A stretch of 64,000 bases of DNA from a virus (IMGVR_UViG_3300029774_000001); one strand, 5' to 3'. Positions 1 to 36,747 are shown, numbered from the stretch's first letter. Numbers and translations are program-made. The notes: a model not told the origin generated them from the letters alone.

Positions 1-1
1 C

Positions 2-3000
2 AATCAAACTTGGACTATGAATCTGACTGTGACAGCCAAAATAACGATAAATGTAAAGTCAAATATACCAAGCGGAACGAATCTAAGCGGTGCTACGGTA
101 AAATACTTTAACCAGACCGGAACGACCGACAGTAGCGGAAATATATCGTTGTACAGAAGTTCCGTAACAAATGGCGTAACAGCAACAGCAACGTATCACG
201 GAAATTATTCCGGAAGCATAACAAGTTCTTCTGCATCTCCGTTCAATGTGGTAATGACACGTTCTACAGCAACAGTTAGCCTTACAGTAAATGAGACATA
301 TTCGGGCGGTAGCATGTTTACTTATCCGTCCATGAAGATGATATTCAGTCCGGCAGCATCAACAAGTCCATTGACACTTGACACAGCCGGAAGCGTATCT
401 TTTGTTTGTTATCTTGGTACCCCGGTTACATTCACCCCACAAACAAGAGCAAATTATTACAGTAATCCAAATAATCAGCTTACATATACAGCAGCCGGAC
501 AATCAAAGACGATTAGTTTGAATTGTAATCAAAAGATAGTGATTAATACGGTAGCAAATATTTACAATATAAACAATACGCTTGCAGGGACAATCACTTA
601 TTTTGGACAAACACTTGCGTCCGGAGGAAGTTTCTATAGAAGTGGATTAGATAGGCCTTTAACGGCAACTGCAACATATTTCAATAACTACGTAGGTACG
701 GTGACAGCCACGCAGACATCTCCCTATACAGTGACGATGAACAGAACGACAAGAACGGTGACAATAACTGTTCAAGAATCAATACCAAGTGTTGGTACCT
801 ATATATTGCCGAGTGTTGTTATAGTAAGAGGTATTCTGTCTAGTTCAAATGCACCAGCAGGAGAAATAACATTGGGTACAGATGCCACAAAAACAAATAC
901 CGTATATGCAGGTATAAATTACACCTACACACCGAAAAACTATGCAAGTTATTACAGTAATGCTTCGCAGAGTCACACATGGACTAATGAAAATGAGAAG
1001 TGGACTATGACATTGAATATAACTGCACGTCTGACATTTAACATAAAGAGTTCTAATTATGGGACAAATATAAGCGGTGTATCATGTTCCTATTTTGGAC
1101 AGACAGGCACGACAGATAGTAGCGGTAATTGGACTGCATACAGAAGTAGTATAGGCAGAGGATATTCGTTTTCCAAGACGAACTACAATAAACTGACTGG
1201 TACATTGTCGGCAGGCCAAGCAAGCCCTCTTAATCTGAAAATGAGCGAGACAAGTTCTTCTATAACATTCACCATAAAGGACTACTATCAAGGAGCAGTA
1301 AAAGGAAATGCGAACGGATGTCCGGTCACAATGACGAATTCGCAATTATCGTCAATCAATTTTACAGGAACGACAAACAGTAGCGGACAGGTGACGTTCG
1401 GCCCAATGATAGCTGGGAATTATAACATAACATGGGGTGGTGGTACGAGCTATTGGGTATCAAGTACGGGAACGATAACAATGCCTCTATCAGCGAACAC
1501 AAGAAATGCAATGAGATTGACGAAGAGTGTAACTAATGTATTCTATTTCCAGGTACCGAATACGAGAACAAAATTTAGATATTGGGCTGTAAACACTCTA
1601 ATGAATCCAGTATATACTACTGGAGGAGTAGCGACAACGGTAACTTTGACAAAAACGGGCGCGACATATTATGATGTTGGAAGTTATACATATATTGCAG
1701 GAGTAGAGACAACGATAAGCACGGCTGTAACGACATATTTCAGAACCGGAAGTAGTACAAATACCGCTACTGTATATTCTATTACTCCTACATACAATTT
1801 TAACAATATACCGGGAATTACAGATACAGCTCCATTATGTTCATATGCGATAAAAGGTATTGTAGTGACTGTACAGAACAGCTATACGAATGCAGCTGTG
1901 AACGGAGCGACAATAAAGATGTATGGTATAAACGGAAGTAATGTCAATACTGGAGCAGGAATGGGAGCGGAACAAGTTGTAACGACGAACAGTGCAGGAC
2001 AAGCGACGGTATATGTGTCCGGATTGACAAACAGATACATAGTAAGTGCGACAAGATACGAGACATTAAACACCACGAACGCGAATACCTCAAACTTTAC
2101 AATCAAGCTGGTGCCGAGTGAGGTAACAATAACAATAACGGTAAACGACGCGAATACAGGAACGAACGTGGGAAGTGGATGTATAGTGAAGCTGTCAAGC
2201 AATAACACCAGCACAGCATATAGCGGCACTACAAACACGAGCGGACAGGTGGTGTTGAAGATAAAGCCGGGCAACTACTGGTGGGAAGCAGGAGGTAGCA
2301 CAACCTGGGGAGGAAACGGAACAGGAGACTGGAATTATCCGAACCGTTCCACCACCTCAATCTCTCTCGTCAAAGACCAGTCCATAACAATAGAGGCTCT
2401 AAAGGTAGGGGTGTGGGTGAAGGACGAATTTAGTAGTAGTAATTTCGGAAAAGACGCAACATCTCGTAAAAATTCGTATTCTGGGTTATATGTAGAACCA
2501 GTTATAGAGGCAAATAAGACATATCCAAGTAGTTCGTGTGCAGCTGTATTGACATATGACCCCAGTAAAGTAAATGAATTAGAGATGATAAATCTAAAAA
2601 CGGTAGCTTCTCTTTTCGTTGACTCCCCTAATGTATATGGAGTTTCAACATTTTTTGATTATAATGGAGCGAATGATTCATATAGACTGTATGGATATAG
2701 TCATATACAAGGTAGTTTTTATTTAAGTCCTTCTTCTAATGGTGATTTTCAAAACTTGAACTACGTATGTTGCGGATTTAGTGGTGCAAATAGGTTAACA
2801 TGGGGGCAATTGAATATAAGAAAAGGTTTTTTAAATTATGTAAAAGGCAATAATGATAGCACTTTAGGTTCAGTGTTTCAAAATAGCAACAATTATTCTG
2901 TACGTAATTCTTTATGTGTTTTAGTAACACAAGAAGAATTAAATTCAATTAATGAAAGCATTAATAGTCAAGAAATAATTGCGATACCCGAAACACCAAA

Positions 3001-3874
3001 TAATAACAATCAAATTAGTATAAGACTTCAATCTTGGGATATCGGCTCTTCTATGAGCTCTTATAGCTTAAAAGTTAATGGGCCTACTGTTGGAAGAAAA
3101 ATCAATATATTCTTTTACAAGAGAGCGTATATTAATCTGTCCAAACATCAATTGATATTGTTTGTATACGGACCTCAAAAGACTTTTTCAGAAGAAAATC
3201 TAACTTTTGATTTTTATGTATTGGTATGGAAAGGTTCTTCTACATGGAATTATATAAATAGTAGTAGTGGTTTGCAATATTGGCATTGTTACAATAACAT
3301 ACCTTCTTCTATTACTAACAATATGGGAGGTAATGTATGGATATCAAAAGATAAGAGATTTATGTTTTATGTTGGCAAGGGTCCTTGGGGAGCGTCGAAA
3401 GGAATAAATATAGTAAGAAGCGCTTCTGTTTTAGTTGATGAAAACGGCTGGGCTGCAACGTCAATAACTATTAATGATAACTTTGTATCAGAATTAAGAA
3501 GCACTCTTGCTAATTATTATGTTCTTGACGTTATATTTAATAAAGATGGTTCTAAAATGATTGCTCTCTGTAATGGACAAAAGGGAGCACAAGGAGGAGC
3601 GATTATTGCTAATTCCTATGTAGAAGGTATACATCCTACTAATATATTTTGTTTTGAAATGCTAAATGGTGGTAAATGGATAAATATACCATATAATATA
3701 GTAGGATTTACTAATTTCTGGAACAAATATAACGCTTCTGGAAGTGGTAAATTGAGACCATTCTTTAGTATTAACCAGAATTATTTAGGGAACACATGGG
3801 ATATGAGTTATGTTTATCCATCGTATAGTGAGAATGCGACAGCATATTATGCTTCTCTTACTTTTAATGATTAA
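2..3874 (+). CDS. Tail fibre / receptor-binding protein (5' end cut by window). Constant repeat-rich N-part joined, in the present orientation, to variable C-terminal domain A
   Basis: Frame is open from nt 2 with no stop before the ATG at 17. The W-T-M-x-L motif at the first residues recurs about 330 aa later, so the ORF continues upstream. Repeated beta-sandwich modules carry G-T-T-D/N-S-S-G and P-G-N-Y motifs. The last ~215 aa are paralogous to minus ORF 3928-5475; both end L-T/S-F-N/G-D. Confidence 0.8.
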   Translation, partial: NQTWTMNLTVTAKITINVKSNIPSGTNLSGATVKYFNQTGTTDSSGNISLYRSSVTNGVTATATYHGNYSGSITSSSASPFNVVMTRSTATVSLTVNETYSGGSMFTYPSMKMIFSPAASTSPLTLDTAGSVSFVCYLGTPVTFTPQTRANYYSNPNNQLTYTAAGQSKTISLNCNQKIVINTVANIYNINNTLAGTITYFGQTLASGGSFYRSGLDRPLTATATYFNNYVGTVTATQTSPYTVTMNRTTRTVTITVQESIPSVGTYILPSVVIVRGILSSSNAPAGEITLGTDATKTNTVYAGINYTYTPKNYASYYSNASQSHTWTNENEKWTMTLNITARLTFNIKSSNYGTNISGVSCSYFGQTGTTDSSGNWTAYRSSIGRGYSFSKTNYNKLTGTLSAGQASPLNLKMSETSSSITFTIKDYYQGAVKGNANGCPVTMTNSQLSSINFTGTTNSSGQVTFGPMIAGNYNITWGGGTSYWVSSTGTITMPLSANTRNAMRLTKSVTNVFYFQVPNTRTKFRYWAVNTLMNPVYTTGGVATTVTLTKTGATYYDVGSYTYIAGVETTISTAVTTYFRTGSSTNTATVYSITPTYNFNNIPGITDTAPLCSYAIKGIVVTVQNSYTNAAVNGATIKMYGINGSNVNTGAGMGAEQVVTTNSAGQATVYVSGLTNRYIVSATRYETLNTTNANTSNFTIKLVPSEVTITITVNDANTGTNVGSGCIVKLSSNNTSTAYSGTTNTSGQVVLKIKPGNYWWEAGGSTTWGGNGTGDWNYPNRSTTSISLVKDQSITIEALKVGVWVKDEFSSSNFGKDATSRKNSYSGLYVEPVIEANKTYPSSSCAAVLTYDPSKVNELEMINLKTVASLFVDSPNVYGVSTFFDYNGANDSYRLYGYSHIQGSFYLSPSSNGDFQNLNYVCCGFSGANRLTWGQLNIRKGFLNYVKGNNDSTLGSVFQNSNNYSVRNSLCVLVTQEELNSINESINSQEIIAIPETPNNNNQISIRLQSWDIGSSMSSYSLKVNGPTVGRKINIFFYKRAYINLSKHQLILFVYGPQKTFSEENLTFDFYVLVWKGSSTWNYINSSSGLQYWHCYNNIPSSITNNMGGNVWISKDKRFMFYVGKGPWGASKGINIVRSASVLVDENGWAATSITINDNFVSELRSTLANYYVLDVIFNKDGSKMIALCNGQKGAQGGAIIANSYVEGIHPTNIFCFEMLNGGKWINIPYNIVGFTNFWNKYNASGSGKLRPFFSINQNYLGNTWDMSYVYPSYSENATAYYASLTFND
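2341..2418. repeat. Left arm of a perfect 78-bp inverted repeat, inside the tail-fibre coding sequence
   Basis: gaaccgttccaccacctcaatctctctcgtcaaagaccagtccataacaatagaggctctaaaggtaggggtgtgggt is the exact reverse complement of 5399-5476. It encodes NRSTTSISLVKDQSITIEALKVGVWV. Confidence 0.95.
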
Positions 3875-5398
3875 ATAAAACGAGCGTCCATACTTTTTTA
3901 ATTGGTATGGACGCTTTTTATAAACTATCAATCTCCGAAACTCAAATTATATCTATACGCATTAAACGGCTCATTCCCTCCAGGATACATGAAGTTAATT
4001 TCTCCATTTACAAAATTGATTAAAGGTTTATAACTATTACCTTTACCGCCAGATGTAGAATTATTATAATCATTCCAAAATGTGTCACCTCCTATATGAG
4101 AACTGTTTAATCTGACAAATTTTTTCTGACTTTCCGACCAAATAAAATAAAGTATTATATCCGGTTGGATACCTTCCGCATAACTATAGGTAGAAGTTGG
4201 GTCTGTAAATGCACCTTTGGAAGAATTTCCAAGAACCATTATTTTATTGGATTTACCGTTGAATATGACATCTAATATATAATAGTTCTGACAAGCATTT
4301 AAGATATCCGTACCTCCTCCTTCCATTTCATAAGAAACTCCAGTCCAGCCATTTTCTCCAAAAAGAGCTGATGAACCTTTTATGGTATGCAATCCCTTAG
4401 AAAATCCTTGATAATTAGCTCCATTCAGTGATATATAGAACAACCATTTTAAATCCGGTGATACCCAATAATCCCCTCCAATTACAGAAGTAATCGCAGA
4501 TGGGATATTGTAATAACACGACCAATTTCCCCCAGATTCCAAATCATCCCCATACTGTCCTACAAGACCTTTCCATATTCCGTAATAAAATTTAGCATGA
4601 GTATCTCCATATGACCTATCTTGTGACTTTACCAATATGATTACTCTTTCATTATCACTTGCCAATACCAGCCACCCCATATGCTCCACTCTACCTTCAT
4701 CTTTATAAGGATATCCAGGTATACTGGAAAAATCTATGATATAATTAGAAACATATTGTAGTGTTATACTTACTACTCTAAATTCATAATTACTATAAGT
4801 TCCAATCATATAAGATTTTATTCTTCCAATTGAACTATGTATTGTTTTAATAACAGAAGCATATTTTCTTACAGAATAATTGTTAAAATATTTATATTGG
4901 TCACTTATAGCATTACCACTATAATATAAATCTGATGAAGTGATTTTCCAAGTATCTTTAACTGAATAATTTCTTAATACTTGAGTTGCAGCCCAACGTA
5001 TTATAGCATTAATTACATAATGTATATATGTAATTACGGGTAATCTTAAATTATCAAAATTATATACGGGATGACTTATTGACACACCAAGATATTTTGT
5101 TATTGCATTTGTACTTACACGAATTGAACTATTATTATCCCATAAATTAGTTTCATCTTTTTTATATAATTTAGCTATACAATATGTTTCAAATGAACTA
5201 TCCGACAAATAAACAGAATGTCCTAATGTATAAATTTTTGTACCAGTAGTTACGAAAAATACAATACCAAAAGAGTTACTGATAGCATACAACTTACTTC
5301 CTTCACTTGGTAAATTTACAATACCCGTATAAGCTCCTTTATATGGTTTGTAATAATCATCTATATACGAGGAATATTGTTCTACTCTTCTGTTCGTT
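2419..5398. other. Putative invertible segment (Mu G-segment-like) with two alternative tail-fibre C-terminal cassettes
   Basis: 2,980 bp bounded by the 78-bp IR. It contains convergent cassette A (+, 2419-3874) and cassette B (-, 3928-5398), separated by a bidirectional hairpin terminator. Confidence 0.7.
3884..3920. terminator. Bidirectional rho-independent terminator between the convergent fibre cassettes
   Basis: 10-bp stem GCGTCCATAC / GTATGGACGC, with a T-run following the hairpin on the + strand (and an A-rich tract upstream of it, giving a T-run on the - strand). Confidence 0.8.
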
Positions 5399-5475
5399 AC
5401 CCACACCCCTACCTTTAGAGCCTCTATTGTTATGGACTGGTCTTTGACGAGAGAGATTGAGGTGGTGGAACGGTT
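3928..5475 (-). CDS. Silent alternative tail-fibre C-terminal cassette B, with no start codon of its own
   Basis: The minus-strand frame reads straight through the right IR arm in the same frame as the left arm (..EALKVGVWV-TNRRVEQ..). A TAG lies immediately outside the IR (5476-5478). There is no ATG before residue ~70, and the track start at 5406 is a GTG inside the IR. The C-terminal ~215 aa are homologous to cassette A. Confidence 0.75.
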   Translation of the reverse strand, partial: NRSTTSISLVKDQSITIEALKVGVWVTNRRVEQYSSYIDDYYKPYKGAYTGIVNLPSEGSKLYAISNSFGIVFFVTTGTKIYTLGHSVYLSDSSFETYCIAKLYKKDETNLWDNNSSIRVSTNAITKYLGVSISHPVYNFDNLRLPVITYIHYVINAIIRWAATQVLRNYSVKDTWKITSSDLYYSGNAISDQYKYFNNYSVRKYASVIKTIHSSIGRIKSYMIGTYSNYEFRVVSITLQYVSNYIIDFSSIPGYPYKDEGRVEHMGWLVLASDNERVIILVKSQDRSYGDTHAKFYYGIWKGLVGQYGDDLESGGNWSCYYNIPSAITSVIGGDYWVSPDLKWLFYISLNGANYQGFSKGLHTIKGSSALFGENGWTGVSYEMEGGGTDILNACQNYYILDVIFNGKSNKIMVLGNSSKGAFTDPTSTYSYAEGIQPDIILYFIWSESQKKFVRLNSSHIGGDTFWNDYNNSTSGGKGNSYKPLINFVNGEINFMYPGGNEPFNAYRYNLSFGD

Positions 5476-5476
5476 C
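5399..5476. repeat. Right arm of the perfect 78-bp inverted repeat
   Basis: Exact reverse complement of 2341-2418. Identity breaks at 2419/5398 and 2340/5477. Confidence 0.95.
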
Positions 5477-5557
5477 TACAGTATTTTTTCGTCGTGTTTG
5501 TTTTCGTAATATCCAAAATTAATCGTATTTTTACCGTGCAATTAATTGTTTTTCAAC

Positions 5558-8500
5558 ATGGAAAAAAGAATAAAGAAAGAAAACCCGTGTGGGGGATTAT
5601 TTTTACCCCAGTCCACACCTATATATGATAACTTGCCTTTCAGTCGTTTTTTTGAAGAAAACGACAAGGAAGTAATACGGTGGGCAGAAAACGTACTTGA
5701 AAAACTGGAAGGAAGGGGGGTTTTGCCCACATTCCTAAAGAAGAAAGAGAACGAGGATTTCCGTGCCTTTTGGGGAACCATAACTCATATATTCGCTTTG
5801 ATAGTTCTGTATGCAAGACAATACAAAAAGATAGACACGAATCAGATTTTATTCGAGATGTTTATTCAGAACAGAGGTCTTGTTACTAATATGGTGGACA
5901 GCCAGGAACAGATGAAATACCTATTCTATAATTACCTGGAAGAATATTCAAAGCGTGGAAGACTTGACATCATAAGCAAGGAAGGCGAGATATTGGGTGA
6001 ATTGTTGCGATTGATAAGATACAATTCTTTGGACGAGTTTATATTTGCCTTGTTGAGACCGGAAGCTACGGGGTGGGCGATGGGTCACAGTTCGCCTACA
6101 TGTGACCGGACGAATACGGTAATGAATGTATCAAAAGCGTATGAATATACAAAAGGAGTAGAGGATTTGAATAATTATCCTCTATTGATACCGGAAAGTA
6201 TAAGCATAACGCAGGACGAAAACGGGGATGATGACGAGATATTCAATGCTATGACATTTTTTGGTAATCAAGCCGTGGGCATAGACGGAAGGGTGGATTT
6301 GGACAAGCTTATAATCATAGACCCGAATCTATCCTACGAAATATCATTGCAAGTAAAAGTGTCGGCTACGGACAATGAAAACCTAAAGTTTGGAGTAGCT
6401 GGGTACGAGACGGTAGACGGAGAGCCGTTGTCTATGGGAATATTGGAAAACGGACAGATAACCGGAAGTTCCTTTTGGTTCCATGAAAACGAATATTTGG
6501 ACATAAAGAATGACGGCATGTATTACTACATAAAAGGAATACTGCTGTCAACGAACGAGAAGTTTTTGAAAGCGCCTGCACTTAATTTCCCGTCTGGGCG
6601 TGCTTTGTCGATAATGCCGGGAATGAAGTATATCGCACCTATATTTATCCAGGAAAGAACGGTCGGAAATCACCCGTATATATATATATACGATTTTCAT
6701 GTGAAACCCTTATATCTGCCGTTTTCACAAGGATATTTGGGTGAACGTGACATTATAGCTGCTTACTATAAAAACAACGCATATCAGAGACAATTTACTG
6801 TAGAGACTTTCTTAAAAAATTACCTTGTTGGATATAAGAACATATTCGGCAGTGAATTGATAAGACCTTATGTAGGAGAGGAAGAATATCAGATATTGTT
6901 CAAGGTGTTTTCAAACCGAAACAAGTACATACCCAATGCAAGGATTACGATAAACGGGGAAGAGCTTGTAACGGACGTGAACGGTGAAGCAAAGATAACG
7001 TTACCGCGCGGACAATGGTATTATGAGGTGGAAGCCGAAAACTTTGAAAACGTGGAAAACTCTTTATTAGTGGACAAGGATGCTGTAGAATATGTACAGT
7101 TAATGGGTGCCGCCTATGAACGGGTGGTTACGTTCTTTGTGCGCGACAAGGAGACAAAAGACTGGATGCAGAATGTGAAAGTGTCCTTTGCAGGAAAGGT
7201 TCAATATACCGGAAGCAACGGTATAGCGACATTCGAGGTGTTCCCCGGTATATACGAATATGTGGCAGAATATGAGGACTATTATACGGTGAGAAGAAAT
7301 GCCGAAATAGTGGATTCTACCAACATAGAAATCGAGATGGAAAAGATACCTTACTATAACGTGACTTTCCGTATAAGGGACGGTGTGGAGCCAGTATCGG
7401 GTGCATCTGTATTAGTGACGGGTGAAGATATTCCTAACCAGACTGGAAGCTCGAATGCGCAGGGACTTGCAACCGGGTTTATATATCCGGCAGGAACGTA
7501 TCATTATAAGGTCGTGAAAGAAGGATATATAACCGTGGAAAAGGATTTTACCATATACGGAAACGCGGTTATAGACATACAGTTCAACCCCATACCGAAA
7601 TATAACATAAACTTTGTCGTGAGAAGCAACGGGTTGCCCGTAGCGAAAGCGGATGTTACTTTCAACGGCACAACCCTACAGACGGAAAGAAACGGGGTTG
7701 TGACATTTGTAGAGGTGGCAGGTTCCTATGCTTGGAAGGTGTCAAAGACGGAATTCAACGGGCAGGAAGGAACGGTGGAAGTCGTGGATAAGGACGTGAC
7801 GGTAGAAGTTGACTTGGTGCAGATAGGCTATCTGATTGATTTTTATGTTACGGACGATAACAATACACCGCTTGACGATGCTTTGGTTACTGTAGGTACG
7901 GAATCAATAAGTACGAGTGGAGGGCAGGCGCAATTTGTCCGTATATCGGGCGGTTATAACTGGACCGTACAGAAGGAAGGATATTATACGAAACAAGGTG
8001 TTGTGACGGTGAACGGAGAGAACAAGAGAGTGGATGTACAATTAAAGCTTGTTACCTACGACATCATATTTACCGTGAGAATGAGCGGACAACCCGTTAA
8101 GAACCAGCCCGTAGTGCTTGGTGTAGGGGAGGATGAACAAACGGTCAATACGGACGCGAGCGGAAACGCAGTCTTTAACCGTGTGCCGGGCAGTTATCCG
8201 TGGAATGTGACAAAAACGGGGTATGAGCCGAGAACAGGAACGGCAGTATTGATAAACCAGCCTTTAGCCATAACGGTAGACCTTGTTAAGCAGACCGGAA
8301 AACTGACGGTAACGGTATTGGATGTGGAAACGAACAATCCTATTAGTAATGCGGTAGTGACGATAAACGGGGAAACGAGATATTCCAACAACAACGGTAT
8401 CGCGGCAAGCTGGACGCTTGAACTTGGTGTGTGGGAGTGGAGCGCGTCTCACCAGGACTATAACCCGGCAAAGGGGAATGTGAACATAACGGCAGGAGAC

Positions 8501-11026
8501 AATGCCTATACTATAAAGATGGCAGAAAAGGCGTCCGTGCCGTTCAACGTGACGTTCCAGGCGACTATAGGAAGTGCGCAGGCTTCTGGGGCGACAATCG
8601 AGATTGTAGGACAAAGCGAAAAGTTGACAACGAACGAATTAGGGTTGGTATCTACGCAATTGTTTTCGGGTACATACGATTATGTGGCAAAATATCCTTA
8701 TTGTTATGACGTGGTGAATTCGTTTACCGTGTACAATTCGGACACCCGTGTTCCTATCAATTTTACCGTAAAGAGGGTGAATGTGAGAATACAGGTTGTC
8801 AATGGCAGCAATATAGGCATAAGTGGGGCACAGGTGACGTTTAACGGAATGACGCAATATTCCGATGGACAAGGATATACGACCTTCAATGTGGAGGCAG
8901 GAAGTTCCGGTACGGCCACGGCAAGCAAGCTTCCCCAATATAACGAGAACAGTACGTTTGTATCGGTAGGGGAATATGATACAAACGCAACGATAGTTCT
9001 TGGTGTAAATACCTATAAAGTTATTTTCGACGTGGTGGACGAGAAAGGGATATCCATAAGAGGAGTGCGTATTGTATGCGGAGGTACGGTAAAGAACACG
9101 GATGGAGCCGGACGTGCGGTATTCGGAACATACGTGCCGCCCCAGACATTAAGCTGGCAGGCGTCAAAGTCCGGGTATCAGAGCCAGAACGGTTCTGTAA
9201 GCATAAGCAATAGCGACGAATATGTTAACGTCGTAATGACGCGTAACAAGTGCCAGGTTACATATAACGTGCGTACAAAGAGCGGTTCTCCTATTTCGGG
9301 CGTGACAGTGGAAGACAATATAAGTTCGGGTGTGACAAGCTCGAACGGTACCGTATCATGGATGGTTCCGTGTAACGATACTTATGCATGGGTGGCAACA
9401 AGTCAGAATTACTTTACGGAGAGCGGAAGTTACACAGTAGGACCGGAAGAGTTCAGCAAGACGATTGACATAATAATGGAAGACGGTGCGGTACTGGAAG
9501 TAAGGGTGTCAAACGGTACGAACATAGTGCTGCCCGTACTTAACACTTCCTCTACTGGACTTAACAATTTGCGTGTGAAATGGGGAGATGGAGACCAGAC
9601 ATTAGGAACAAGTTCGCACACCTATAGTTCCGGAGGAACAAAGATAATATTGTTTGACTTTAACGGAATGTCGGCCAATTTATCGTGGAGTGCAGACGGA
9701 TTTTCAAGTTTTCAGAATTGTTTGACAAAAGTAATCAAGTGGTTTACTGAGGATGTGAGAACGTCATGGGGAAAGGGAGCTTTCCAGGATTGCAGTAGTC
9801 TTGAATCGGTTGTAAGTTGGACCACAAGCCTTATGAGCGGTTCGGCAGATTCGTTCTTTTATGGATGCAGCAGTTTGAGAAGCGTTCCAGCAGGATTGTT
9901 TGATTTTATAACAAGCGGTACATTTGTTAGCACATATAGAGATAGTGGGCTGAGTGGTTCAGTGAACTTGTCGAGTGTGCTTGCAGGGAACTTGATAAAT
10001 GATTACTCCAGTTGTTTTTATGGATGTAAAAATATTTCTTCCGTAAGCGGACAGTTAAGGACGTCAAGTAATGGAACGTCTTTGAATTATATGTTTGCCG
10101 GATGTAGCAGTATGTCAAGTATAAGTAATGATATTGGAGCGACGAATATAAAAACATGTATATATATGTTTTCCGATTGTTCTAATTTGCAATCACCATG
10201 CAGAATAACGTTCAGATATGTTTCGGGAGAGACAATAAACGCATACGGTTTTTGTAATGCTTCGGGCGTATCGTCATTACCGAGCAACATGTTTTCCGGG
10301 ACCGTGGGTGAATTGTTTTTGGGACAGGCGTTTTATAAATGTACCAATCTGTCAAGTGTAAGTTCCGGTGCATTCAATTATACGACGAATGGAGGTACAC
10401 AATGTAATGAAATGTTTTACGGCTGTACAAGCTTGCTGAATGTAAGTGGTGTGACAATCCCCGATATTAGAAATGCGTCCGGTATGTTTCGGAATAGTGG
10501 TTTGACTACTATAACATCATCCTTGTTTTCTGATTCTTCGCAATGTAGTTCTTACACATATTGCTTCAGTGGTTGCAGGAATCTGAGGACGGCAGGTTCG
10601 CAGGGCAATCCTATCACACCGCCCGAACATTCGGTGACGGTAAATATTAATAGTATGTTTGAGAATTGTTCTAATTTGTCGACAACCGAATATGCTTTCG
10701 GTGATGTGACTGTAAATAAACCTGGACCTACCGGAACAGATAATAGTTATATAGAATCGGGGGTACTAAAACATATGAATAGTTGCACGGACGCATTCAG
10801 CGGTTGCTCAAATATGACGTCTCAACCGAGATGGGAATGTATAGTGGCCGGAGTAAAATTACCGACAGTTTATATGCCTTTGTTCTTCTATTTTGAAAAA
10901 CTATTCCAACCGTATCGATTCGGTTTTCCGGATGTTGACAGTCTCCCTAAAAGCGGATGTTTCAGAGGATGTACAAGGATGTATAATTACGCAGATTTCA
11001 ACAGAAATTATCCAGAATGGTTCTAA
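5558..11026 (+). CDS. Giant tail-associated adhesin-like protein: unique N-domain, ~11 beta-sandwich repeats, then BspA/DUF285-like leucine-rich repeats
   Basis: First ATG is at 5558; the track start 5546 is TTG. About 11 tandem ~85-aa modules carry N-G-x-A/V-x-F..P/A-G-x-Y-x-Y/W (carboxypeptidase-regulatory-like). The C-terminal part has repeats of F/MF-x-x-C-x-x-L-x-S-V/I type. Confidence 0.75.
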   Translation: MEKRIKKENPCGGLFLPQSTPIYDNLPFSRFFEENDKEVIRWAENVLEKLEGRGVLPTFLKKKENEDFRAFWGTITHIFALIVLYARQYKKIDTNQILFEMFIQNRGLVTNMVDSQEQMKYLFYNYLEEYSKRGRLDIISKEGEILGELLRLIRYNSLDEFIFALLRPEATGWAMGHSSPTCDRTNTVMNVSKAYEYTKGVEDLNNYPLLIPESISITQDENGDDDEIFNAMTFFGNQAVGIDGRVDLDKLIIIDPNLSYEISLQVKVSATDNENLKFGVAGYETVDGEPLSMGILENGQITGSSFWFHENEYLDIKNDGMYYYIKGILLSTNEKFLKAPALNFPSGRALSIMPGMKYIAPIFIQERTVGNHPYIYIYDFHVKPLYLPFSQGYLGERDIIAAYYKNNAYQRQFTVETFLKNYLVGYKNIFGSELIRPYVGEEEYQILFKVFSNRNKYIPNARITINGEELVTDVNGEAKITLPRGQWYYEVEAENFENVENSLLVDKDAVEYVQLMGAAYERVVTFFVRDKETKDWMQNVKVSFAGKVQYTGSNGIATFEVFPGIYEYVAEYEDYYTVRRNAEIVDSTNIEIEMEKIPYYNVTFRIRDGVEPVSGASVLVTGEDIPNQTGSSNAQGLATGFIYPAGTYHYKVVKEGYITVEKDFTIYGNAVIDIQFNPIPKYNINFVVRSNGLPVAKADVTFNGTTLQTERNGVVTFVEVAGSYAWKVSKTEFNGQEGTVEVVDKDVTVEVDLVQIGYLIDFYVTDDNNTPLDDALVTVGTESISTSGGQAQFVRISGGYNWTVQKEGYYTKQGVVTVNGENKRVDVQLKLVTYDIIFTVRMSGQPVKNQPVVLGVGEDEQTVNTDASGNAVFNRVPGSYPWNVTKTGYEPRTGTAVLINQPLAITVDLVKQTGKLTVTVLDVETNNPISNAVVTINGETRYSNNNGIAASWTLELGVWEWSASHQDYNPAKGNVNITAGDNAYTIKMAEKASVPFNVTFQATIGSAQASGATIEIVGQSEKLTTNELGLVSTQLFSGTYDYVAKYPYCYDVVNSFTVYNSDTRVPINFTVKRVNVRIQVVNGSNIGISGAQVTFNGMTQYSDGQGYTTFNVEAGSSGTATASKLPQYNENSTFVSVGEYDTNATIVLGVNTYKVIFDVVDEKGISIRGVRIVCGGTVKNTDGAGRAVFGTYVPPQTLSWQASKSGYQSQNGSVSISNSDEYVNVVMTRNKCQVTYNVRTKSGSPISGVTVEDNISSGVTSSNGTVSWMVPCNDTYAWVATSQNYFTESGSYTVGPEEFSKTIDIIMEDGAVLEVRVSNGTNIVLPVLNTSSTGLNNLRVKWGDGDQTLGTSSHTYSSGGTKIILFDFNGMSANLSWSADGFSSFQNCLTKVIKWFTEDVRTSWGKGAFQDCSSLESVVSWTTSLMSGSADSFFYGCSSLRSVPAGLFDFITSGTFVSTYRDSGLSGSVNLSSVLAGNLINDYSSCFYGCKNISSVSGQLRTSSNGTSLNYMFAGCSSMSSISNDIGATNIKTCIYMFSDCSNLQSPCRITFRYVSGETINAYGFCNASGVSSLPSNMFSGTVGELFLGQAFYKCTNLSSVSSGAFNYTTNGGTQCNEMFYGCTSLLNVSGVTIPDIRNASGMFRNSGLTTITSSLFSDSSQCSSYTYCFSGCRNLRTAGSQGNPITPPEHSVTVNINSMFENCSNLSTTEYAFGDVTVNKPGPTGTDNSYIESGVLKHMNSCTDAFSGCSNMTSQPRWECIVAGVKLPTVYMPLFFYFEKLFQPYRFGFPDVDSLPKSGCFRGCTRMYNYADFNRNYPEWF
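6940..9480 (+). repeat. In-frame tandem array of ~11 carboxypeptidase-regulatory-like beta-sandwich domains
   Basis: Recurrent V-x-V/F-x-G...D/N-x-x-G-x-A/V-x-F...G-x-Y-x-Y/W...G-Y blocks about every 85 aa. Boundaries are approximate. Confidence 0.6.
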
Positions 11027-30167: not shown

Positions 30168-30371
30168 ATGTTTGTACAGATAAATAACAAAAGGATAAAG
30201 ATTACTTCTATCAGTAGATACAATGATGAGGGGTATTCACAGTCAACCAAGAAGTTCAGAATAGCTTTAAAAATTTCCAATGTCTGGGAAAGCTTCTATT
30301 TTGACAAGGAAGTAGAGAAAGATAATGTTTTGAAAAATCTTGACAATACATTAAAGGTGACAGCGCTATGA
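30168..30371 (+). CDS. Hypothetical small protein
   Basis: First ATG in the frame; 67 aa. Confidence 0.45.
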   Translation: MFVQINNKRIKITSISRYNDEGYSQSTKKFRIALKISNVWESFYFDKEVEKDNVLKNLDNTLKVTAL

Positions 30372-31396
30372 CCGGGAAAATGATAATAAGTACAGACTGG
30401 CACTTGAAGACGTCCAATATCGAAGAAATAACGGAATTGCAAAGGCAGGAATTGAACGTAGCGGAAGACAACGGTATAACCGACCATGTGTGGCTTGGTG
30501 ACATATTCGATTCCCGTATATCACAGAGGCAGGACGTCTTAAATGCTTTTTCCTCTATACTTGATATGTACGCGAGGATGGGACACACAGTATATTGCAT
30601 TCCAGGAAATCACGATAAGAGCGATTATAGTTCGGACAGGTCGTTTCTTGATGCGTTTAAATATCATAAAGGGTTTAAGTTGATAACTGACTTGGACGCT
30701 TTCGAGATAGGCGGTGTAATATGCTATTTTATGCCGTTTTTCGACAATGCGATATGGTTAAAAGGGATGGGTGATGTGCTGAAAGAAAAGAATCATAAGA
30801 CGCATGTACTTTTTACTCATATTGCTTTCCAGGGAAGCAGGAATAATGACGGTAGCGAGGTAGAAAGCGATATAAAACCTTCTTTGTTTAAAAACTTCGG
30901 TATGGTATTTTCCGGACATTACCACGATTTCCAAGAAATAGGAAAGAATATCGTGCACTTGGGAAGCATCACTCAGAACAATTTCGGGGAAGATGATAAA
31001 AAGGGGTTTTGGTTATTGGATGATGATTTGACATACGCGTTTATTCCGTCAACAGGGAAGCGATACAGAAAGGTTACTGTGAACCTGGAAAACACGACTT
31101 TCAAGCAAGCGGATAAGATTGTAAAAGATTTTCAGAAGAAAAACAAGGAAGATTTTGTGCGCGTGGAATTCGTAGGTACGAAAGATGCAATTTCCTCCAT
31201 TGACAAGGAAGAGTATAGAAAGCTTGGTGTGGATGTCAAAGTTAAGTCCGTAGAACTGGAAACGGAAGAGGTGGAGACAGCAGAAGAAATCAAAGCTTTG
31301 TCCGGTTCCGATATTGCAGAAAAATTCAAGGGATTTTGCGAACAGAACGATTACTCCTATAATGAAGGAATGGAAATTTTAAAGGAGGTGTTATAA
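30368..31396 (+). CDS. sbcD: SbcD/Mre11-type nuclease
   Basis: Metallophosphoesterase motifs D-W-H, G-D-I-F-D, G-N-H-D, F-T-H and G-H-Y-H. Confidence 0.85.
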   Translation: MTGKMIISTDWHLKTSNIEEITELQRQELNVAEDNGITDHVWLGDIFDSRISQRQDVLNAFSSILDMYARMGHTVYCIPGNHDKSDYSSDRSFLDAFKYHKGFKLITDLDAFEIGGVICYFMPFFDNAIWLKGMGDVLKEKNHKTHVLFTHIAFQGSRNNDGSEVESDIKPSLFKNFGMVFSGHYHDFQEIGKNIVHLGSITQNNFGEDDKKGFWLLDDDLTYAFIPSTGKRYRKVTVNLENTTFKQADKIVKDFQKKNKEDFVRVEFVGTKDAISSIDKEEYRKLGVDVKVKSVELETEEVETAEEIKALSGSDIAEKFKGFCEQNDYSYNEGMEILKEVL

Positions 31397-32367
31397 TGGG
31401 ATTGGAAGAATTATTTGGAAGAATAGAGAAACGTTTCGGAAAGGAAGCGGTAGTAGGCAACGATATAAAGGTAGACACCGTGTCTTCCGGCAGCATGGCA
31501 TTTGACGAGATATTAGGAGGAGGTTTTGCACTTGGAAGAATACACGAAATATACGGAGGATTTTCGAGCGGCAAAAGCTCTGCGGCATTGCATCTAAGTG
31601 CATCCGTACAGAAAACGCTTGGGAAAGCGGTAGGGTATGTAGATACGGAACAAGCACTTGACCTGGAATACGCAAAAGCGCTTGGAGTTGATTTAAGCCG
31701 CGACAAGTGGATAATGTCGCAGCCGGATAGTGCGGAACAGGCGCTTGAAATCGTGCGTGAGATGCTGGAGGTGCCGGAAATCGGATTGGTAGTGCTTGAT
31801 TCGGTTGCTGGATTGGTGCCGGAAGCTGTTTTGCAGGGTGAGGCAGGAGATGCAAAGATAGCGCTTGTTGCACGCCTTATGTCACAGCAGTTAAGCATCC
31901 TAAAAAATGTATGTAAGAAAAACGGAAACATTCTCCTATGTATCAATCAGACAAGGCAGAAAATCGGAGGTATGGGATTCGGTCCTACGACAACCACACC
32001 AGGAGGTGAAGCCCTTAAATTCTATGCCACCCAAAGAGCGGAATTTGCCCGTATAGGCACGGAAAAGACCGATGGAGTGGCAACGGCCAATAAGACACAA
32101 ATAAAAGTCGTAAAGAATAAGATTGCACCCCCTTTCCGTGTATGCCAGGTAATGTTAGAGTATGGTGTAGGATTTGACACGATACAGGAGCTTATAGATA
32201 TGTCTATAAGAGAGGGGATTTGCTCTAAAAAGGGTGCTTGGTTTTACTATGGCGAGACCCGGTTAGGACAGGGAATGGATAACGCTAAAAAAGCGTTGTC
32301 GGATAAGGATTTGTTTAATGAAATTAAAAATAAATTGACAGAGACGTTATGTATCCCGAAAGATTGA
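31396..32367 (+). CDS. recA: RecA recombinase
   Basis: G-G-F-A-L-G-R-I-H-E-I-Y-G-G-F-S-S-G-K-S-S, V-V-L-D-S-V-A-G-L-V-P, A-R-L-M-S-Q-Q-L, I-N-Q-T-R-Q-K-I-G and T-T-P-G-G-E-A-L-K-F-Y-A-T-Q-R. Confidence 0.9.
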   Translation: MGLEELFGRIEKRFGKEAVVGNDIKVDTVSSGSMAFDEILGGGFALGRIHEIYGGFSSGKSSAALHLSASVQKTLGKAVGYVDTEQALDLEYAKALGVDLSRDKWIMSQPDSAEQALEIVREMLEVPEIGLVVLDSVAGLVPEAVLQGEAGDAKIALVARLMSQQLSILKNVCKKNGNILLCINQTRQKIGGMGFGPTTTTPGGEALKFYATQRAEFARIGTEKTDGVATANKTQIKVVKNKIAPPFRVCQVMLEYGVGFDTIQELIDMSIREGICSKKGAWFYYGETRLGQGMDNAKKALSDKDLFNEIKNKLTETLCIPKD

Positions 32368-34349
32368 TATTAAGAAATTTTTTGTCATTTGAAGAACTTG
32401 ATTACACCTTTACAAAAGAAACTTTGGGCGTGACTGGAGAGAACCGGACAGAGGAAGACCAGCTAAGCAATGGTAGCGGCAAAACGGGACTGTCACAAGG
32501 CTTGTTCTATGCGATATATGGAGTTAATCTAAGAGGAAAGGAAGACAAGAAACTGATACGTAAAGGCACGAAAGAAGCCTATACCAAGGTTGAAATATTT
32601 TGTCAAAAACGGAAAGAAACACTGATAATTGAGCGTACAATTCCGTTGAAAAGTTCTTCCAAAGTATCGCTGACCCTAAAGAAAGATGATGTGGAGACAC
32701 CCGTAACGGTAGCCACTGTACTGGATGCGAATAAATACGTGATTAACTGGATTGAGATTACACCGGAAGATGCCAAGTCCTATTATATCGTAACCAAGGG
32801 TAATTATTCGTCTTTTTTTCGTTCGTCCAATACGGAGAAACTTGCCTTGATAAGTCGCTTTGTCAATTTCTCCAATATTGACAAGACAAAAGGTGTGATT
32901 TCCGAAAAAGTCGGAATATTGGAACAAGAATTGCACAAAGAAGAATGCTTGAAAAATGTTGCGGAAGGCAAGAAACAAGCCTATGAGGAACAGATACAGC
33001 AAGTGTTAAGCGAAGACCCGGAAGAAAAGAAAAAGGGTGTAATAGGCGAAATTCAGTCCGAAATATATTCTTTACAAATTCTTAATGAAGACCTTGTAAA
33101 GACACGCATTCCCAAAGCGGAAAAGAATATCGAAGGTGTAGACAAGGATATCGAAGGGCTTATAAAGCTGAAAGAAGAAGTAAGTAAAGAACTTGAAAGC
33201 TTCGATATGGATGCTTACAAGGACACCTATAAGGAGATAGACACGGAAATAGCCGGATTGAAGAAAGACAAGTCGAACAAGGAAGAAAGGCGTAAAGATT
33301 ACGCATTGAAATTAGCTGATTATGAGAAGAAATTACAGAAGGTCGAAGTATTGCTTTCTGGCGTCATTGTGTGCCCTAACTGCAATCATAAGTTTTTTAT
33401 GGATGCTGACAAGGATTTTGAAGAACTGGAGGCTGACAAAGAGGCTTATAAAACAGCCATTGATAAGAATACAGTAAAGAAAAACGAATATGAGACCTCT
33501 ATAAACGAACTGGAAGACCTTATCTCCCAATACCAGGATGTAAGAAAAGAAACGGAAGAGGAAGAACGTAAACTGCGTGTCCGTCGTGGAAAGGTGGTTG
33601 ATAAGATGATGGAGGTGGAAGACCGTATAAGGGAGCTTGAACGCGAGAAAAAGGGATATGAAAACTCCATTGTAAAGATGCGTTCAGAAGTTGAGACAAA
33701 CCGTTCTCTCATTGATTCCAAGACTGGGTATATAGAGGAATTGAAAAAGCAGAAAGCGGAAAGACCCTCTATCAAAGACCAGGAAAAGGCGGTAGAAAAA
33801 CTTTCCAAGGACATAGAGGAAGGCAACAAAAAAATTCTTGACAAGAAAAACGAGATTTTCAAAGTACAGCAATGGGATAGCCGTTTTAAAGACTTTAAGA
33901 TGTATCTGGCAATGGAGCAGATAAAGAATATCCAAAGCGCGGCCAATGATGTACTAAAGAAAATGAAAAGTGATTTACGTCTGATGATTGAAGGTTTCAA
34001 ACGGAACGCGAACGGAACGTTGAAAGAGGAGATAACACCCTATGTTTTCCGTGATGAGATGGAAAGCTTTTTCTTTTATTCGGGTGGTGAACAAGCACGT
34101 GTAGAGGTAGCTCTTATCATTGCGATACAAAGCATGATTAACGCGACGAAACAGTATGGAGGCATGGACTTTTTATTACTGGACGAGGTGCTGGAAAGTA
34201 GCGATTCTCTGGGGATAGAAAACATAATTTCCTCTACGGAATTTTTGAAACAGTCTATATTGATTGTTACCCATGTGCCGAAACTCAATGACGAGATAAA
34301 ACAACTGAAAGTAATCAAAGAAAACGGAATATCAAGATTGGAGGTGTAA
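32349..34349 (+). CDS. sbcC: SbcC/Rad50-type ATPase
   Basis: Walker A N-G-S-G-K-T-G, long coiled coil with a C-P-N-C zinc hook, signature S-G-G-E-Q, Walker B L-L-L-D-E-V. Confidence 0.85.
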   Translation: MYPERLILRNFLSFEELDYTFTKETLGVTGENRTEEDQLSNGSGKTGLSQGLFYAIYGVNLRGKEDKKLIRKGTKEAYTKVEIFCQKRKETLIIERTIPLKSSSKVSLTLKKDDVETPVTVATVLDANKYVINWIEITPEDAKSYYIVTKGNYSSFFRSSNTEKLALISRFVNFSNIDKTKGVISEKVGILEQELHKEECLKNVAEGKKQAYEEQIQQVLSEDPEEKKKGVIGEIQSEIYSLQILNEDLVKTRIPKAEKNIEGVDKDIEGLIKLKEEVSKELESFDMDAYKDTYKEIDTEIAGLKKDKSNKEERRKDYALKLADYEKKLQKVEVLLSGVIVCPNCNHKFFMDADKDFEELEADKEAYKTAIDKNTVKKNEYETSINELEDLISQYQDVRKETEEEERKLRVRRGKVVDKMMEVEDRIRELEREKKGYENSIVKMRSEVETNRSLIDSKTGYIEELKKQKAERPSIKDQEKAVEKLSKDIEEGNKKILDKKNEIFKVQQWDSRFKDFKMYLAMEQIKNIQSAANDVLKKMKSDLRLMIEGFKRNANGTLKEEITPYVFRDEMESFFFYSGGEQARVEVALIIAIQSMINATKQYGGMDFLLLDEVLESSDSLGIENIISSTEFLKQSILIVTHVPKLNDEIKQLKVIKENGISRLEV

Positions 34350-34350
34350 C

Positions 34351-36743: not shown

Positions 36744-36747
36744 TAAT

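Follow-up and report, generated by a model that had tools for sequence, protein, structure and literature searches.

Tail-fibre tips are switched by the Mu G, P1/P7 C, e14 P and p15B Min segments, which are inverted by the serine invertases Gin, Cin, Pin and Min. These enzymes combine a Resolvase catalytic domain with a C-terminal HTH, and the reaction depends on Fis and a recombinational enhancer. In these systems a tail-fibre gene contains a segment of ~3 kb between inverted repeats, a constant N-terminal part is followed by one of two convergent alternative C-terminal parts, and host-recognition tips are swapped in frame, the second cassette having no start of its own. The P1 C segment is bounded by inverted repeats of ~0.6 kb, at which flipping is recA-dependent, and the genomes of herpesviruses and plastids form isomers by flip-flop through inverted repeats. 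Recombinase-independent flip-flop isomerization has been described for a region of ~30 kb bounded by inverted repeats in Anabaena cyanophages (bioRxiv 10.64898/2026.02.14.705889). C-terminal specificity domains of surface-recognition proteins are also exchanged by shufflons (R64 Rci) and by intragenic and hsdS inversions in Bacteroidales, which store silent alternative ends antisense and use tyrosine or Mpi-type invertases (PMC9881135, PMC7641763).

Here we describe a locus at positions 2341–5476 of a 64-kb stretch of viral DNA (the window), in which two pre-made alternative tips for a giant tail-fibre protein appear to be kept on one 3-kb segment. The phage is an abundant, uncultured member of the human gut community with a genome of ~103–107 kb, and it probably infects Bacteroidota.

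Results

Structure of the locus

2..2340, plus strand: giant baseplate-wedge/fibre protein, 3′ part of the constant region, cut by the left window edge
2341..2418, plus strand: left arm of the 78-bp inverted repeat, coding for the junction peptide NRSTTSISLVKDQSITIEALKVGVWV
2419..3874, plus strand: cassette A (type 6), presently expressed C-terminal tip, 485 aa, TAA at 3872–3874
3876..3922, either strand: hairpin between the convergent cassettes, from inverted repeat and folding
3928..5398, minus strand: cassette B (type 1), presently silent alternative tip, 490 aa, TGA at 3930–3928
5399..5476, minus strand: right arm, exact reverse complement of the left arm
5476..5478, minus strand: TAG that ends the minus-strand frame, just outside the right arm and overlapping its first base
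5546..11026, plus strand: second giant fibre-like protein, next gene, 1,826 aa, probable ATG at 5558

A repeat search and direct reading found the two arms to be exact reverse complements (78/78) separated by 2,980 nt. Widening the repeat to 85 nt reduced the match to 96 %, as identity stops abruptly on both sides. A perfect inverted repeat of 78 nt in 64 kb far exceeds chance, and neither a third copy of the repeat nor a third cassette was found across the whole window. The preliminary description of this DNA had reported the repeat, its sharp ends and the interval correctly, but had called 78 bp unusual against the classical systems; the P1 C segment mentioned above indicates that long repeats are not unprecedented.

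The left arm lies in frame within the plus-strand giant ORF and encodes a junction peptide of 26 aa, and the right arm is read on the minus strand in the identical frame. The giant ORF had been described as starting at position 17 and encoding 1,285 aa; it is instead open from base 2 and truncated at the window edge, and belongs to a fusion of ~3,400 aa, the full-length ORF in relatives having 3,405–3,427 aa (~3,410 aa). A Baseplate_J match was found in the giant ORF of one relative, the N-terminus of another (L008) resembles the baseplate wedge subunit phrog_6 (E = 3e-30), and CarboxypepD_reg-type repeats are present in the giant fibre protein of relatives. The final ~2.6 kb 5′ of the repeat are hypervariable from genome to genome. 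The cassette fold was predicted to be a beta-propeller (mean pLDDT 68) resembling glycan-active enzymes and viral attachment proteins, with a TM score of 0.37 at most. From the baseplate-wedge N-terminus and this predicted tip we identify the giant protein as a tail fibre and the cassettes as its putative receptor-binding tips.

Cassette B is in frame with the right arm but lacks a start codon of its own 5′ of the repeat; in this frame an ATG is absent and the earliest candidate start is a GTG within the arm, at 5406. Cassettes A and B share 32 % identity over the C-terminal 246 aa (E = 4e-31). The hairpin between them folds at −22.4 kcal/mol on the plus strand (z = −7.8) and −21.0 kcal/mol on the minus strand (z = −5.9), and is probably a bidirectional terminator; a simple terminator scan did not pick it up because its loop is longer than 8 nt. 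In relatives the orientation of this loop turns together with the segment. ORF reading and folding thus agreed with the earlier account of two convergent in-frame cassettes split by a hairpin, and direct reading with its placement of the TAG. The next gene encodes four CarboxypepD_reg domains, a BspA-type LRR and DUF285, and makes up the right flank of the switch, which is conserved (92–100 % identity in relatives).

Both orientations among related phages

Comparison was based upon ~90 related genome loci, including 47 complete segments and 44 further ENA loci. The complete segments contained ~9 cassette types in 23 ordered combinations, each of the six major types being found expressed in some genomes and silent in others, and the same pattern was seen across the ENA loci. 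Type 6, the type of cassette A, occupied the expressed slot in eight sampled genomes and the silent slot in three. Type 1, the type of cassette B, was silent in 13 genomes and formed an in-frame fusion with the giant ORF in six (L014, L199, L200, L206, L214 and L228), one of which (L199) carries the A/B pair of the window inverted; the start sequence of type 1 also follows the left arm in L061, L064, L071, L085 and L098. These fusions support the proposal, made in the preliminary description on the model of Mu G and P1 C, that inversion swaps the C-termini in frame.

Reciprocal arrangements were seen in 36 genome pairs. In the best of these, L225/L226, the inner 3,056 nt match at 99.84 % in inverted orientation, differing at 5 nt, and the right flanks are 100 % identical, whereas the left flanks are 75–82 % identical; reciprocal pairs always differ at some other place. 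A lineage at 58 % identity had a single orientation in all six sampled genomes. These comparisons are between samples and were all made on metagenome assemblies, and short-read assemblers may orient a repeat-bounded segment arbitrarily. Taken as a whole, the comparison of related phages that had been proposed earlier found both orientations (for example, in L225/L226 and L199) and indicates that, over evolutionary time at least, inversion does take place; the cassette segment most likely flips.

In 40 of 44 genomes the silent cassette was still an intact, in-frame ORF, and cassette dN/dS (0.25–0.48) was equal in comparisons between expressed cassettes, between silent cassettes and between the two, from which it follows that each cassette must often be expressed.

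Evolution of the repeat

The left arm is 93–100 % conserved in relatives, compared to 72–90 % identity in their upstream flank, and conservation at synonymous sites is 0.91 in the repeat versus 0.76 upstream. Its boundaries drift, with 62-, 78- and 83-nt variants among relatives, a frequent one being a right arm reduced to positions 17–78 (62 nt). Arms differed by a mean of 0.88 nt within a genome and 3.59 nt between genomes (permutation p < 1e-4), and variants common to both arms of a genome ranged over positions 13–73. The arms thus appear to evolve in concert within genomes, although metagenome assemblers may merge small differences between arms and inflate this signal. Identical arms were also present in the MEGAHIT k141 contigs L012 and L015, in which each arm assembles independently. 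In ~37 % of genomes the arms differ at 1–7 positions, so homogenization is incomplete.

Deeper lineages have the same architecture with unrelated repeats of 66, 67, 65, 45, 41 and 40 nt, of which five are perfect and one, the 65-nt repeat, is 98.5 % identical. The repeat core had no occurrence in 185,579 GTDB species genomes.

Search for a recombinase

No Pfam match to a serine or tyrosine recombinase was found in the window among the scanned ORFs of at least 60 aa; two ORFs were left out of the scan because they were recognizable as the C-terminal part of Pol III alpha (25522–27597) and DNA ligase (36721–38682). The earlier statement that no recombinase is visible in the 64 kb therefore holds at Pfam sensitivity for these ORFs. 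As had also been suggested, the rest of the genome was searched, on relatives (including one of 107 kb), with ORFs of at least about 80–100 aa scanned by Pfam and precomputed Pfam matches used for ~10 kb, and these scans, which covered nearly all of the remaining ~43 kb, turned up no functional invertase gene. The sole recombinase homologue was a 151-aa HTH+Resolvase protein of IS607-TnpA-like architecture. Its alignment with ISC1926 TnpA (PDB 6DGC) puts Met, Lys, Ser and Gly where the catalytic Ser, Asp, Arg and Arg should be, and on this evidence the protein is catalytically dead. Many ORFs of the phage have no annotation.

Phage_integrase had no match in the window or in the scans of relatives. 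With an integrase absent and the repeat core missing from bacterial genomes, the phage appears to be lytic. No gix/hix-like site was present in the whole window at ≤3 mismatches to TTNTCNNAAACCNNGGTTTNNGANAA, the consensus of the gix/cix/hix crossover sites, which are imperfect palindromes of 26 bp located at the ends of the repeats.

The window does carry a set of genes for general recombination:

30368..31396, plus strand: SbcD/Mre11-like nuclease (Metallophos; phrog_100 SbcD-like, E = 3e-54)
31396..32367, plus strand: RecA/UvsX-like strand-exchange protein (Pfam RecA, E = 2e-73; phrog_97 UvsX-like, E = 1.5e-67)
32349..34349, plus strand: SbcC/Rad50-like ATPase (phrog_77 SbcC-like, E = 2e-46; no Pfam match at E ≤ 0.001)
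34351..34866, plus strand: RuvC-like Holliday-junction resolvase (phrog_1770, E = 8e-20)

Judged by these matches, a general recombination toolkit is encoded at 30368–34866, in which the RecA/UvsX-like protein is a candidate driver of recombination between the arms and the SbcD/Mre11-like nuclease a candidate part of the machinery.

Discussion

Our study suggests, with modest confidence, that 2341–5476 is a two-state inversion switch of the fibre tip, flipped by the general homologous recombination of the phage, with the arms kept identical by gene conversion. Transcription and translation would pass from the constant part, by way of the left arm and its 26-aa junction, into whichever cassette of ~485 aa faces it, while the opposite cassette would lie antisense, without a start codon, and be silent. 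Recombination between the arms would invert the 3-kb segment and swap the tips in frame. Since the search of a near-complete relative genome turned up no functional invertase, flipping is probably due to general recombination between the short arms and not to a dedicated enzyme of the Gin/Hin or tyrosine type. During replication this may be carried out by the UvsX/RecA-like recombinase, SbcCD-like nuclease and Holliday-junction resolvase of the phage, and the accompanying gene conversion would keep the arms identical. We assume that recombination is efficient at 40–78 bp of homology, by analogy with T4 and lambda. The RecA/SbcCD/RuvC module had been named earlier as one option, and the evidence now favours it. 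The conserved junction and central hairpin would also let co-infecting relatives swap cassettes, which would account for ~9 types in 23 ordered combinations.

The same switch could instead be catalysed by an unrecognized site-specific recombinase, either a host (Bacteroidales) invertase or a phage protein of novel fold, with separate gene conversion keeping the arms alike. Invertases that act on many loci are abundant in Bacteroidales genomes (PMC7641763, PMC9881135), the higher synonymous conservation of the repeat could reflect a protein-binding site, and the phage has many unannotated ORFs as well as a conserved recombinase-derived DNA-binding protein. We nevertheless consider this explanation unlikely, if far from negligible. 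None of the four catalytic residues is kept in the only recombinase homologue, a gix/hix-like site is absent from the window and the repeat core from GTDB genomes, and the outer 16 nt of the repeat are dispensable. Moreover, variants shared by the arms across the whole repeat could not be produced by conservative exchange at a fixed point, and deeper lineages have unrelated repeats that differ in length and position but are, with one exception, perfect. Concerted evolution, drifting boundaries, lineage-specific repeats and synonymous conservation are best read as indicating that homology between the arms matters, not one specific site.

It seems improbable to us that a programmed switch is lacking, with the silent cassette acting only as a reservoir and rare recombination of co-infecting phages over evolutionary time producing the orientations and combinations, each orientation being effectively fixed within its population. 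The 23 ordered combinations do indicate exchange between genomes, reciprocal pairs always differ elsewhere, as in the left flank of L225/L226, and one lineage has a single orientation in six genomes. Against this, silent cassettes are intact and constrained as expressed ones are, perfect repeats have been kept independently in at least four sequence classes, and only 5 of the 3,056 nt of the segment differ between L225 and L226. It is more improbable still that cassette B is expressed separately and simply has a 26-aa adaptor motif in common with the fibre, or that the orientations are assembly errors at the repeat. The GTG within the arm could in principle start a 492-aa protein, gene callers annotate the silent cassette as a separate ORF, several contigs end at the repeat and some contigs of ~3.1 kb equal the segment in size. 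However, the arm is immediately preceded by a TAG, with no in-frame ATG, the 78/78 identity extends to synonymous sites, and in other genomes these cassette types continue the 3,400-aa ORF in frame, also in k141 MEGAHIT contigs, which were assembled with a k-mer longer than the repeat. Assembly errors could not give rise to so many different pairings of cassettes.

Compared to Mu G-type systems, the locus has the same layout, being a ~3-kb segment bounded by inverted repeats within a tail-fibre gene, with a constant N-terminal part, two convergent alternative C-termini that swap in frame, and a second cassette without its own start. The likeness to Mu G, P1 C and Min put forward earlier therefore stands for the logic. 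Membership of the Gin/Cin family is rejected, as no invertase gene was found, adjacent or in the near-complete relative genome, and no 26-bp gix/cix/hix-like site in the window. The locus also differs in having no tail-fibre assembly (U/U′) genes within the segment, a repeat sequence that varies between lineages, a fibre that is a 3,400-aa baseplate-wedge fusion, and a phage that appears lytic and probably infects Bacteroidota.

With the flip-flop systems of Anabaena cyanophages, herpesviruses, plastids and P1 it shares both orientations among close relatives, repeats that diverge between lineages but stay in place, and the lack of an identified dedicated recombinase, general recombination during replication being invoked. 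Arm identity is maintained here rather than a particular sequence, although assembly could exaggerate that identity, and general recombination machinery is encoded in the genome. Their repeats measure 400 nt to several kb and invert large gene blocks with the coding sequence unchanged, whereas here arms of only 40–78 nt sit within an ORF and join it to alternative protein ends. The best reading of the sequence comparisons overall is Mu-G-like logic with homologous recombination as the driver.

Shufflons and the Bacteroidales inversions likewise exchange C-terminal specificity domains and store silent ends antisense. These systems pair a neighbouring tyrosine or serine recombinase with short, conserved recognition repeats and often comprise several segments; none of these features was found here, and assignment to the shufflon/tyrosine-recombinase class (Rci, Bacteroidales Tsr-type) failed on the missing Phage_integrase match and the lineage-specific repeat sequence. 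The diversity-generating retroelements of gut phages offer a functional analogy only, in the rapid diversification of a receptor-binding tip of a Bacteroidota phage. Their mechanism is unrelated, using a reverse transcriptase, of which none was found in this phage, and template and variable repeats, whereas the choice here is between two pre-made cassettes.

Repeat arms, reading frames and cassettes

The preliminary description had read this region as an invertible tail-fibre cassette within a perfect inverted repeat, and its layout was confirmed upon re-examination:

2341-2418, plus strand: left arm of the inverted repeat, in frame inside the long ORF of the giant baseplate-wedge/fibre gene
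2419-3874, plus strand: cassette A (type 6), 485 aa, in the expressed slot
3876-3922: hairpin between the cassettes (-22.4 / -21.0 kcal/mol, z = -7.8 / -5.9)
5398-3928, minus strand: cassette B (type 1), 490 aa, in the silent slot
5399-5476, minus strand: right arm, read in the same frame
5478-5476, minus strand: TAG stop directly before the right arm
5546-11026: next gene, 1,826 aa, four CarboxypepD_reg domains and BspA-type LRR / DUF285

The arms are exact reverse complements (78/78) and identity ends sharply, the match falling to 96% when extended to 85 nt. A GTG within the right arm is the first possible start for the minus-strand frame. The two cassettes fill the 2,980-nt interval as had been proposed, and are paralogous, with 32% identity across the C-terminal 246 aa (E = 4e-31). 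The giant ORF does not begin at position 17; its frame is already open at base 2 and the window edge truncates it. The hairpin was overlooked by a simple terminator scan because of its long loop. No third repeat copy or third cassette was found in the window. The 80 nt that separate the right arm from the next gene (5477-5557) carry a minus-strand TAATTTTG motif directed into the silent cassette; this resembles the Bacteroides -7 promoter element, TAnnTTTG, and could drive antisense or read-in transcription.

Orientation of the segment among related genomes

About 90 repeat-bearing loci were gathered from IMG/VR, ENA and JGI assemblies, 47 of them with complete segments, whose cassettes form approximately nine sequence types in 23 ordered combinations. 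The comparison of related phages that had been suggested for detecting both orientations did find both, with all six major cassette types present in both slots. Type 1, silent in the window, occupied the expressed slot 6 times and the silent slot 13 times, and type 6, expressed in the window, 8 and 3 times, respectively. Reciprocal order of the same two types was seen in 36 genome pairs. In the closest of the pairs compared, L225 and L226, the 3,056-nt interior is 99.84% identical when reversed and the right flank is 100% identical; reverse-orientation identity was 99.2% for L213/L224 and 98.9% for L219/L221, and a further locus (L199) carries the window's own A/B pairing inverted. In genomes that have the type of cassette B in the expressed slot, the giant ORF continues in frame into the cassette, with 481-496 aa to the stop, and the loop of the central hairpin changes orientation together with the segment. 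Taken together, this is strong evidence from sequence comparison that inversion recurs among related genomes.

The silent cassette was intact in 40 of 44 genomes. Values of dN/dS were 0.25-0.48, apart from 0.8 for type 3, which has barely diverged, and were indistinguishable whether two expressed cassettes, two silent ones or one of each were compared; relative to the pace of sequence change, no cassette therefore spends long in the silent state. Damaged cassettes were also observed, the silent one being interrupted in L014 (2850-4321) and L204, and L223 having a stop immediately past the left arm; the switch may be locked or decaying in such genomes. Among six genomes of a deeper lineage (the 58%-identity lineage), no reciprocal orientations were found, with one orientation throughout. 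No contigs from the same sample were found in opposite orientation; only the PPYF01 assembly had two relevant contigs, and these represent two strains rather than two orientations, because their cassette types differ.

All of the comparative data are assemblies, and the orientation differences might be read as assembly errors. A repeat longer than the k-mer allows the assembler to choose an orientation from pair information or to break the contig, and bubble merging can erase arm-to-arm differences. Several contigs indeed terminate within the repeat or at its edge, for which reason it probably contributes to assembly breaks near the fibre genes of this lineage. However, three MEGAHIT contigs assembled with a k-mer longer than the repeat (k141; L012, L014 and L015) have these features too, and neither the in-frame fusions nor the many cassette pairings could arise through assembly error.

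Search for a recombinase

A second alternative is that a host invertase, or an unrecognised phage enzyme, inverts the segment, which we consider unlikely, although far from negligible. Phage tail-fibre inversion switches are textbook cases and, to our knowledge, all those characterised depend upon Gin-family invertases in temperate enterobacterial phages. The absence of a recombinase gene from these 64 kb, noted in the preliminary description, held when every ORF of at least 60 aa from 12 kb onward, except two recognisable as polymerase and ligase, was compared with Pfam: no Resolvase, Recombinase, Phage_integrase or transposase domain was found. The rest of the genome had been put forward as a possible source of the enzyme, and nearly all of the remaining ~43 kb was walked, the first ~10 kb in an ENA scaffold (L019) that encodes the window's 511-aa protein exactly, and the rest in IMG/VR contig 3300045988_105286 (107,150 bp), in which ORFs of about 80-100 aa or more were scanned. 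This search found no working invertase and a single recombinase-like match, a 151-aa IS607-TnpA-like protein.

This protein is encoded in the structural module outside the window (L051:17400-17855), comprises HTH_17 and Resolvase domains (E = 1.4e-7) and is near invariant in about 27 relatives. Compared with the catalytic domain of ISC1926 TnpA (PDB 6DGC), it has Met for Ser and Lys-Ser...Gly for Asp-Arg...Arg, and stops short of the E-helix. With four of four catalytic residues substituted and the E-helix region missing, it was ruled out as the invertase; judged by these residues it cannot act as a serine recombinase by known chemistry, and it looks like a domesticated, catalytically dead recombinase. 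No gix/hix-like 26-bp site was found in the window in a consensus search. An 11-bp palindrome within the repeat (TAGAGGCTCTA) was rejected as a recombinase site, being not beyond chance expectation and not kept in other lineages.

Homology between the repeat arms

Four lines of evidence, namely concerted evolution of the arms, drifting boundaries, lineage-specific repeats and the presence of the machinery, point to homology rather than a specific site. Comparison of left and right arm within each of 41 non-redundant genomes gave a mean difference of 0.88 nt, with 63% identical, compared to 3.59 nt and 2.3% for a left arm against another genome's right arm (permutation p < 1e-4); in genomes of the L016, L017 or L205 type the arms differ at 4-7 positions. 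Variants common to both arms range from position 13 to 73. A conservative exchange confined to one point is unable to transfer variants between arms on both sides of the crossover, whereas repair of heteroduplex DNA in homologous recombination is able to do so. The boundaries also vary, as a common right arm matches at positions 17-78 only (62 nt), and identity in L018 is 5 nt longer.

The deeper relatives have repeats of their own. In the 75% lineage, a figure that refers to the neighbouring 305-aa protein encoded just upstream of the giant gene, L278 carries a perfect 66-nt repeat of unrelated sequence around 2,781 nt with two ~480-aa cassettes. This repeat lies ~50 nt further downstream, and for this reason an exact 36-nt search of that lineage found one arm copy only. 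The 58% lineage has repeats of 67, 65, 45, 41 and 40 nt around 1.5-kb segments, four of them perfect and the 65-nt one 98.5% identical, which differ from each other at synonymous sites. The phage itself encodes a T4-like recombination set, and the T4 and lambda systems recombine a few tens of bp efficiently.

In the model we favour, the phage's own UvsX/SbcCD/resolvase recombination would invert the two receptor-binding cassettes often enough to be useful while the genome replicates, by means of short (40-78 bp), self-homogenising inverted repeats placed within the fibre gene. The repeat junction may double as a hotspot for cassette swaps between co-infecting relatives. Conservation of the repeat between genomes is 0.955, against 0.86-0.89 in its surroundings (third codon positions, 0.91 against 0.76), which fits a role as a landing pad for such exchange; the same idea is supported by the large number of cassette pairings and by conservation of the central hairpin (GGTAACTATATACC...GGTATATAGTTACC). 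In its full form, the proposal is that a whole abundant gut-phage family practises host-range phase variation by short-repeat homology and ordinary phage recombination, with no dedicated recombinase and with the same junction as its cassette-swap hotspot; to this we attach an even chance of being correct.

Relation to known systems

The logic of the switch is shared with Mu G, P1 C and p15B Min, although neither of the two defining features of that family that were tested, an invertase and its crossover site, was found here. Shufflon-type and Bacteroidales invertase systems differ likewise, as the present locus lacks both a tyrosine recombinase and short conserved repeats. Mechanistically, the closest parallel comes from Anabaena cyanophages, where PCR revealed recombinase-independent isomerisation of a 30-kb region via long inverted repeats (bioRxiv 10.64898/2026.02.14.705889), but those repeats are 400-700 nt and coding sequence is not rewired. 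Systematic screens for gene-altering inversions include tail fibres, yet in prophages with nearby recombinases (PMC9881135), and the viral invertons reported by TPMM belong to other phages. No description of this switch was found in a full-text literature search. The switch is of interest chiefly for its missing invertase, for repeats that differ between lineages yet keep themselves identical, and for how abundant the phage is.

The same switch logic thus appears in a very common, apparently unintegrated, uncultured gut phage lineage in which no working invertase was found. If the model is true, inversion of coding sequence can be programmed through homology alone. Should general recombination suffice, searches demanding a nearby recombinase miss such switches, any recombination-proficient phage with short intragenic inverted repeats becomes a candidate for programmed variation, and each virion population would hold two receptor specificities from a pool of at least nine. 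This would bear upon the encounter of gut phages with phase-variable Bacteroidales surfaces, host-range prediction and phage engineering.

Fibre gene and predicted cassette fold

In relatives the giant ORF is 3,405-3,427 aa long, with an N-terminal match to baseplate wedge / Baseplate_J (phrog_6, E = 3e-30) and with CarboxypepD_reg-like repeats. Neither cassette, nor the pair of small genes that follow the second fibre gene, had a match in Pfam or PHROGs, and the cassette family (34 clusters) is confined to the window's phage lineage. AlphaFold predicted an all-beta propeller for cassette B (25-sequence alignment, mean pLDDT 68, pTM 0.76). Foldseek matched this model to PL24 ulvan lyase, WD40 propellers, neuraminidases and paramyxovirus attachment proteins, at TM ≤ 0.37 only; the model fits a glycan-recognising tip, and nothing more specific.

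The ~2.6 kb of the giant gene that lead up to the repeat (window ~1-2340) are hypervariable. In L094 compared to L092 (17053-19722), identity there is 82% with a ~540-nt indel, whereas the preceding 17 kb is 97% identical, which suggests a second exchangeable module ahead of the repeat junction. Many 84-89-kb IMG/VR contigs end a few nt from the start of the giant gene (L058, L063, L070, L078, L081, L084, L090, L106 and others), so that either the variable fibre region routinely interrupts assembly or the genome physically ends there. If the former, published genomes would be ~18 kb too short.

Genome and relatives of the phage

Genomes of this lineage are 103-107 kb. A marker protein (11053-11889) was present in 1,330 blocks of the assembly collection, mostly from human gut. 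ENA samples carrying the phage include ERZ28635398 / SAMN05971479, with a 103-kb scaffold that codes for an exact copy of the window's 511-aa protein, ERZ1309940 and ERZ27242454. The nearest cultured relatives are the Bacteroides thetaiotaomicron phages DAC16-23 and SJC03, with 35% terminase identity. With 1-8000 and 20000-44000 as nucleotide queries, the phage collection yielded no close relative, the sole match being 286 nt of Bacteroides phage EMB1. The repeat core is absent from 185,579 GTDB species genomes, which gave no prophage, host-site or host hint, and nothing therefore points to a prophage state.

The rest of the window holds a replication/recombination module followed by lysis and early structural genes. 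Its products include a PNK phosphatase, Toprim primase, AAA_28 protein, split Pol III alpha, SbcD-like, RecA/UvsX-like and SbcC-like proteins, Holliday-junction resolvase, SNF2 helicase with RNase H, UvrD-like helicase, holin and a BACON-domain protein. Two adjacent ORFs share the coding of DNA polymerase III alpha, 23922-25517 (PHP and the start of the polymerase domain) and 25522-27597 (the remainder); in L014, from 20617 onward, the latter part reaches 827 aa and shows a faint match to an intein.

Beyond the window, relatives encode a portal protein with an intein, a zeta-toxin-like gene, a NUDIX protein, capsid protein, GIY-YIG endonuclease, DUF3560 protein, RNase T exonuclease, terminase, TnpB, a tail-tube initiator and a 932-aa protein that matches no family and may, as our guess, be the tape measure. 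The portal gene (1,000 aa; L019 11549-14551) lies just past the window's right end, has an intein with a LAGLIDADG endonuclease, and is followed by the zeta-toxin-like gene. The GIY-YIG / NUMOD homing endonuclease lies in the structural module (L051 15662-16555), and the neighbouring gene is offset by ~880 nt among loci, which suggests that this endonuclease is present in some relatives and absent in others. Genes for TnpB (OrfB_IS605 / Cas12f-like TNB), of which the window has none, occur at differing positions (L009 18196-19380, L011 18109-19323, L012 12136-13350, L018 12240-13454 and L072 7934-9160), suggesting that TnpB-only elements are active in this phage lineage.
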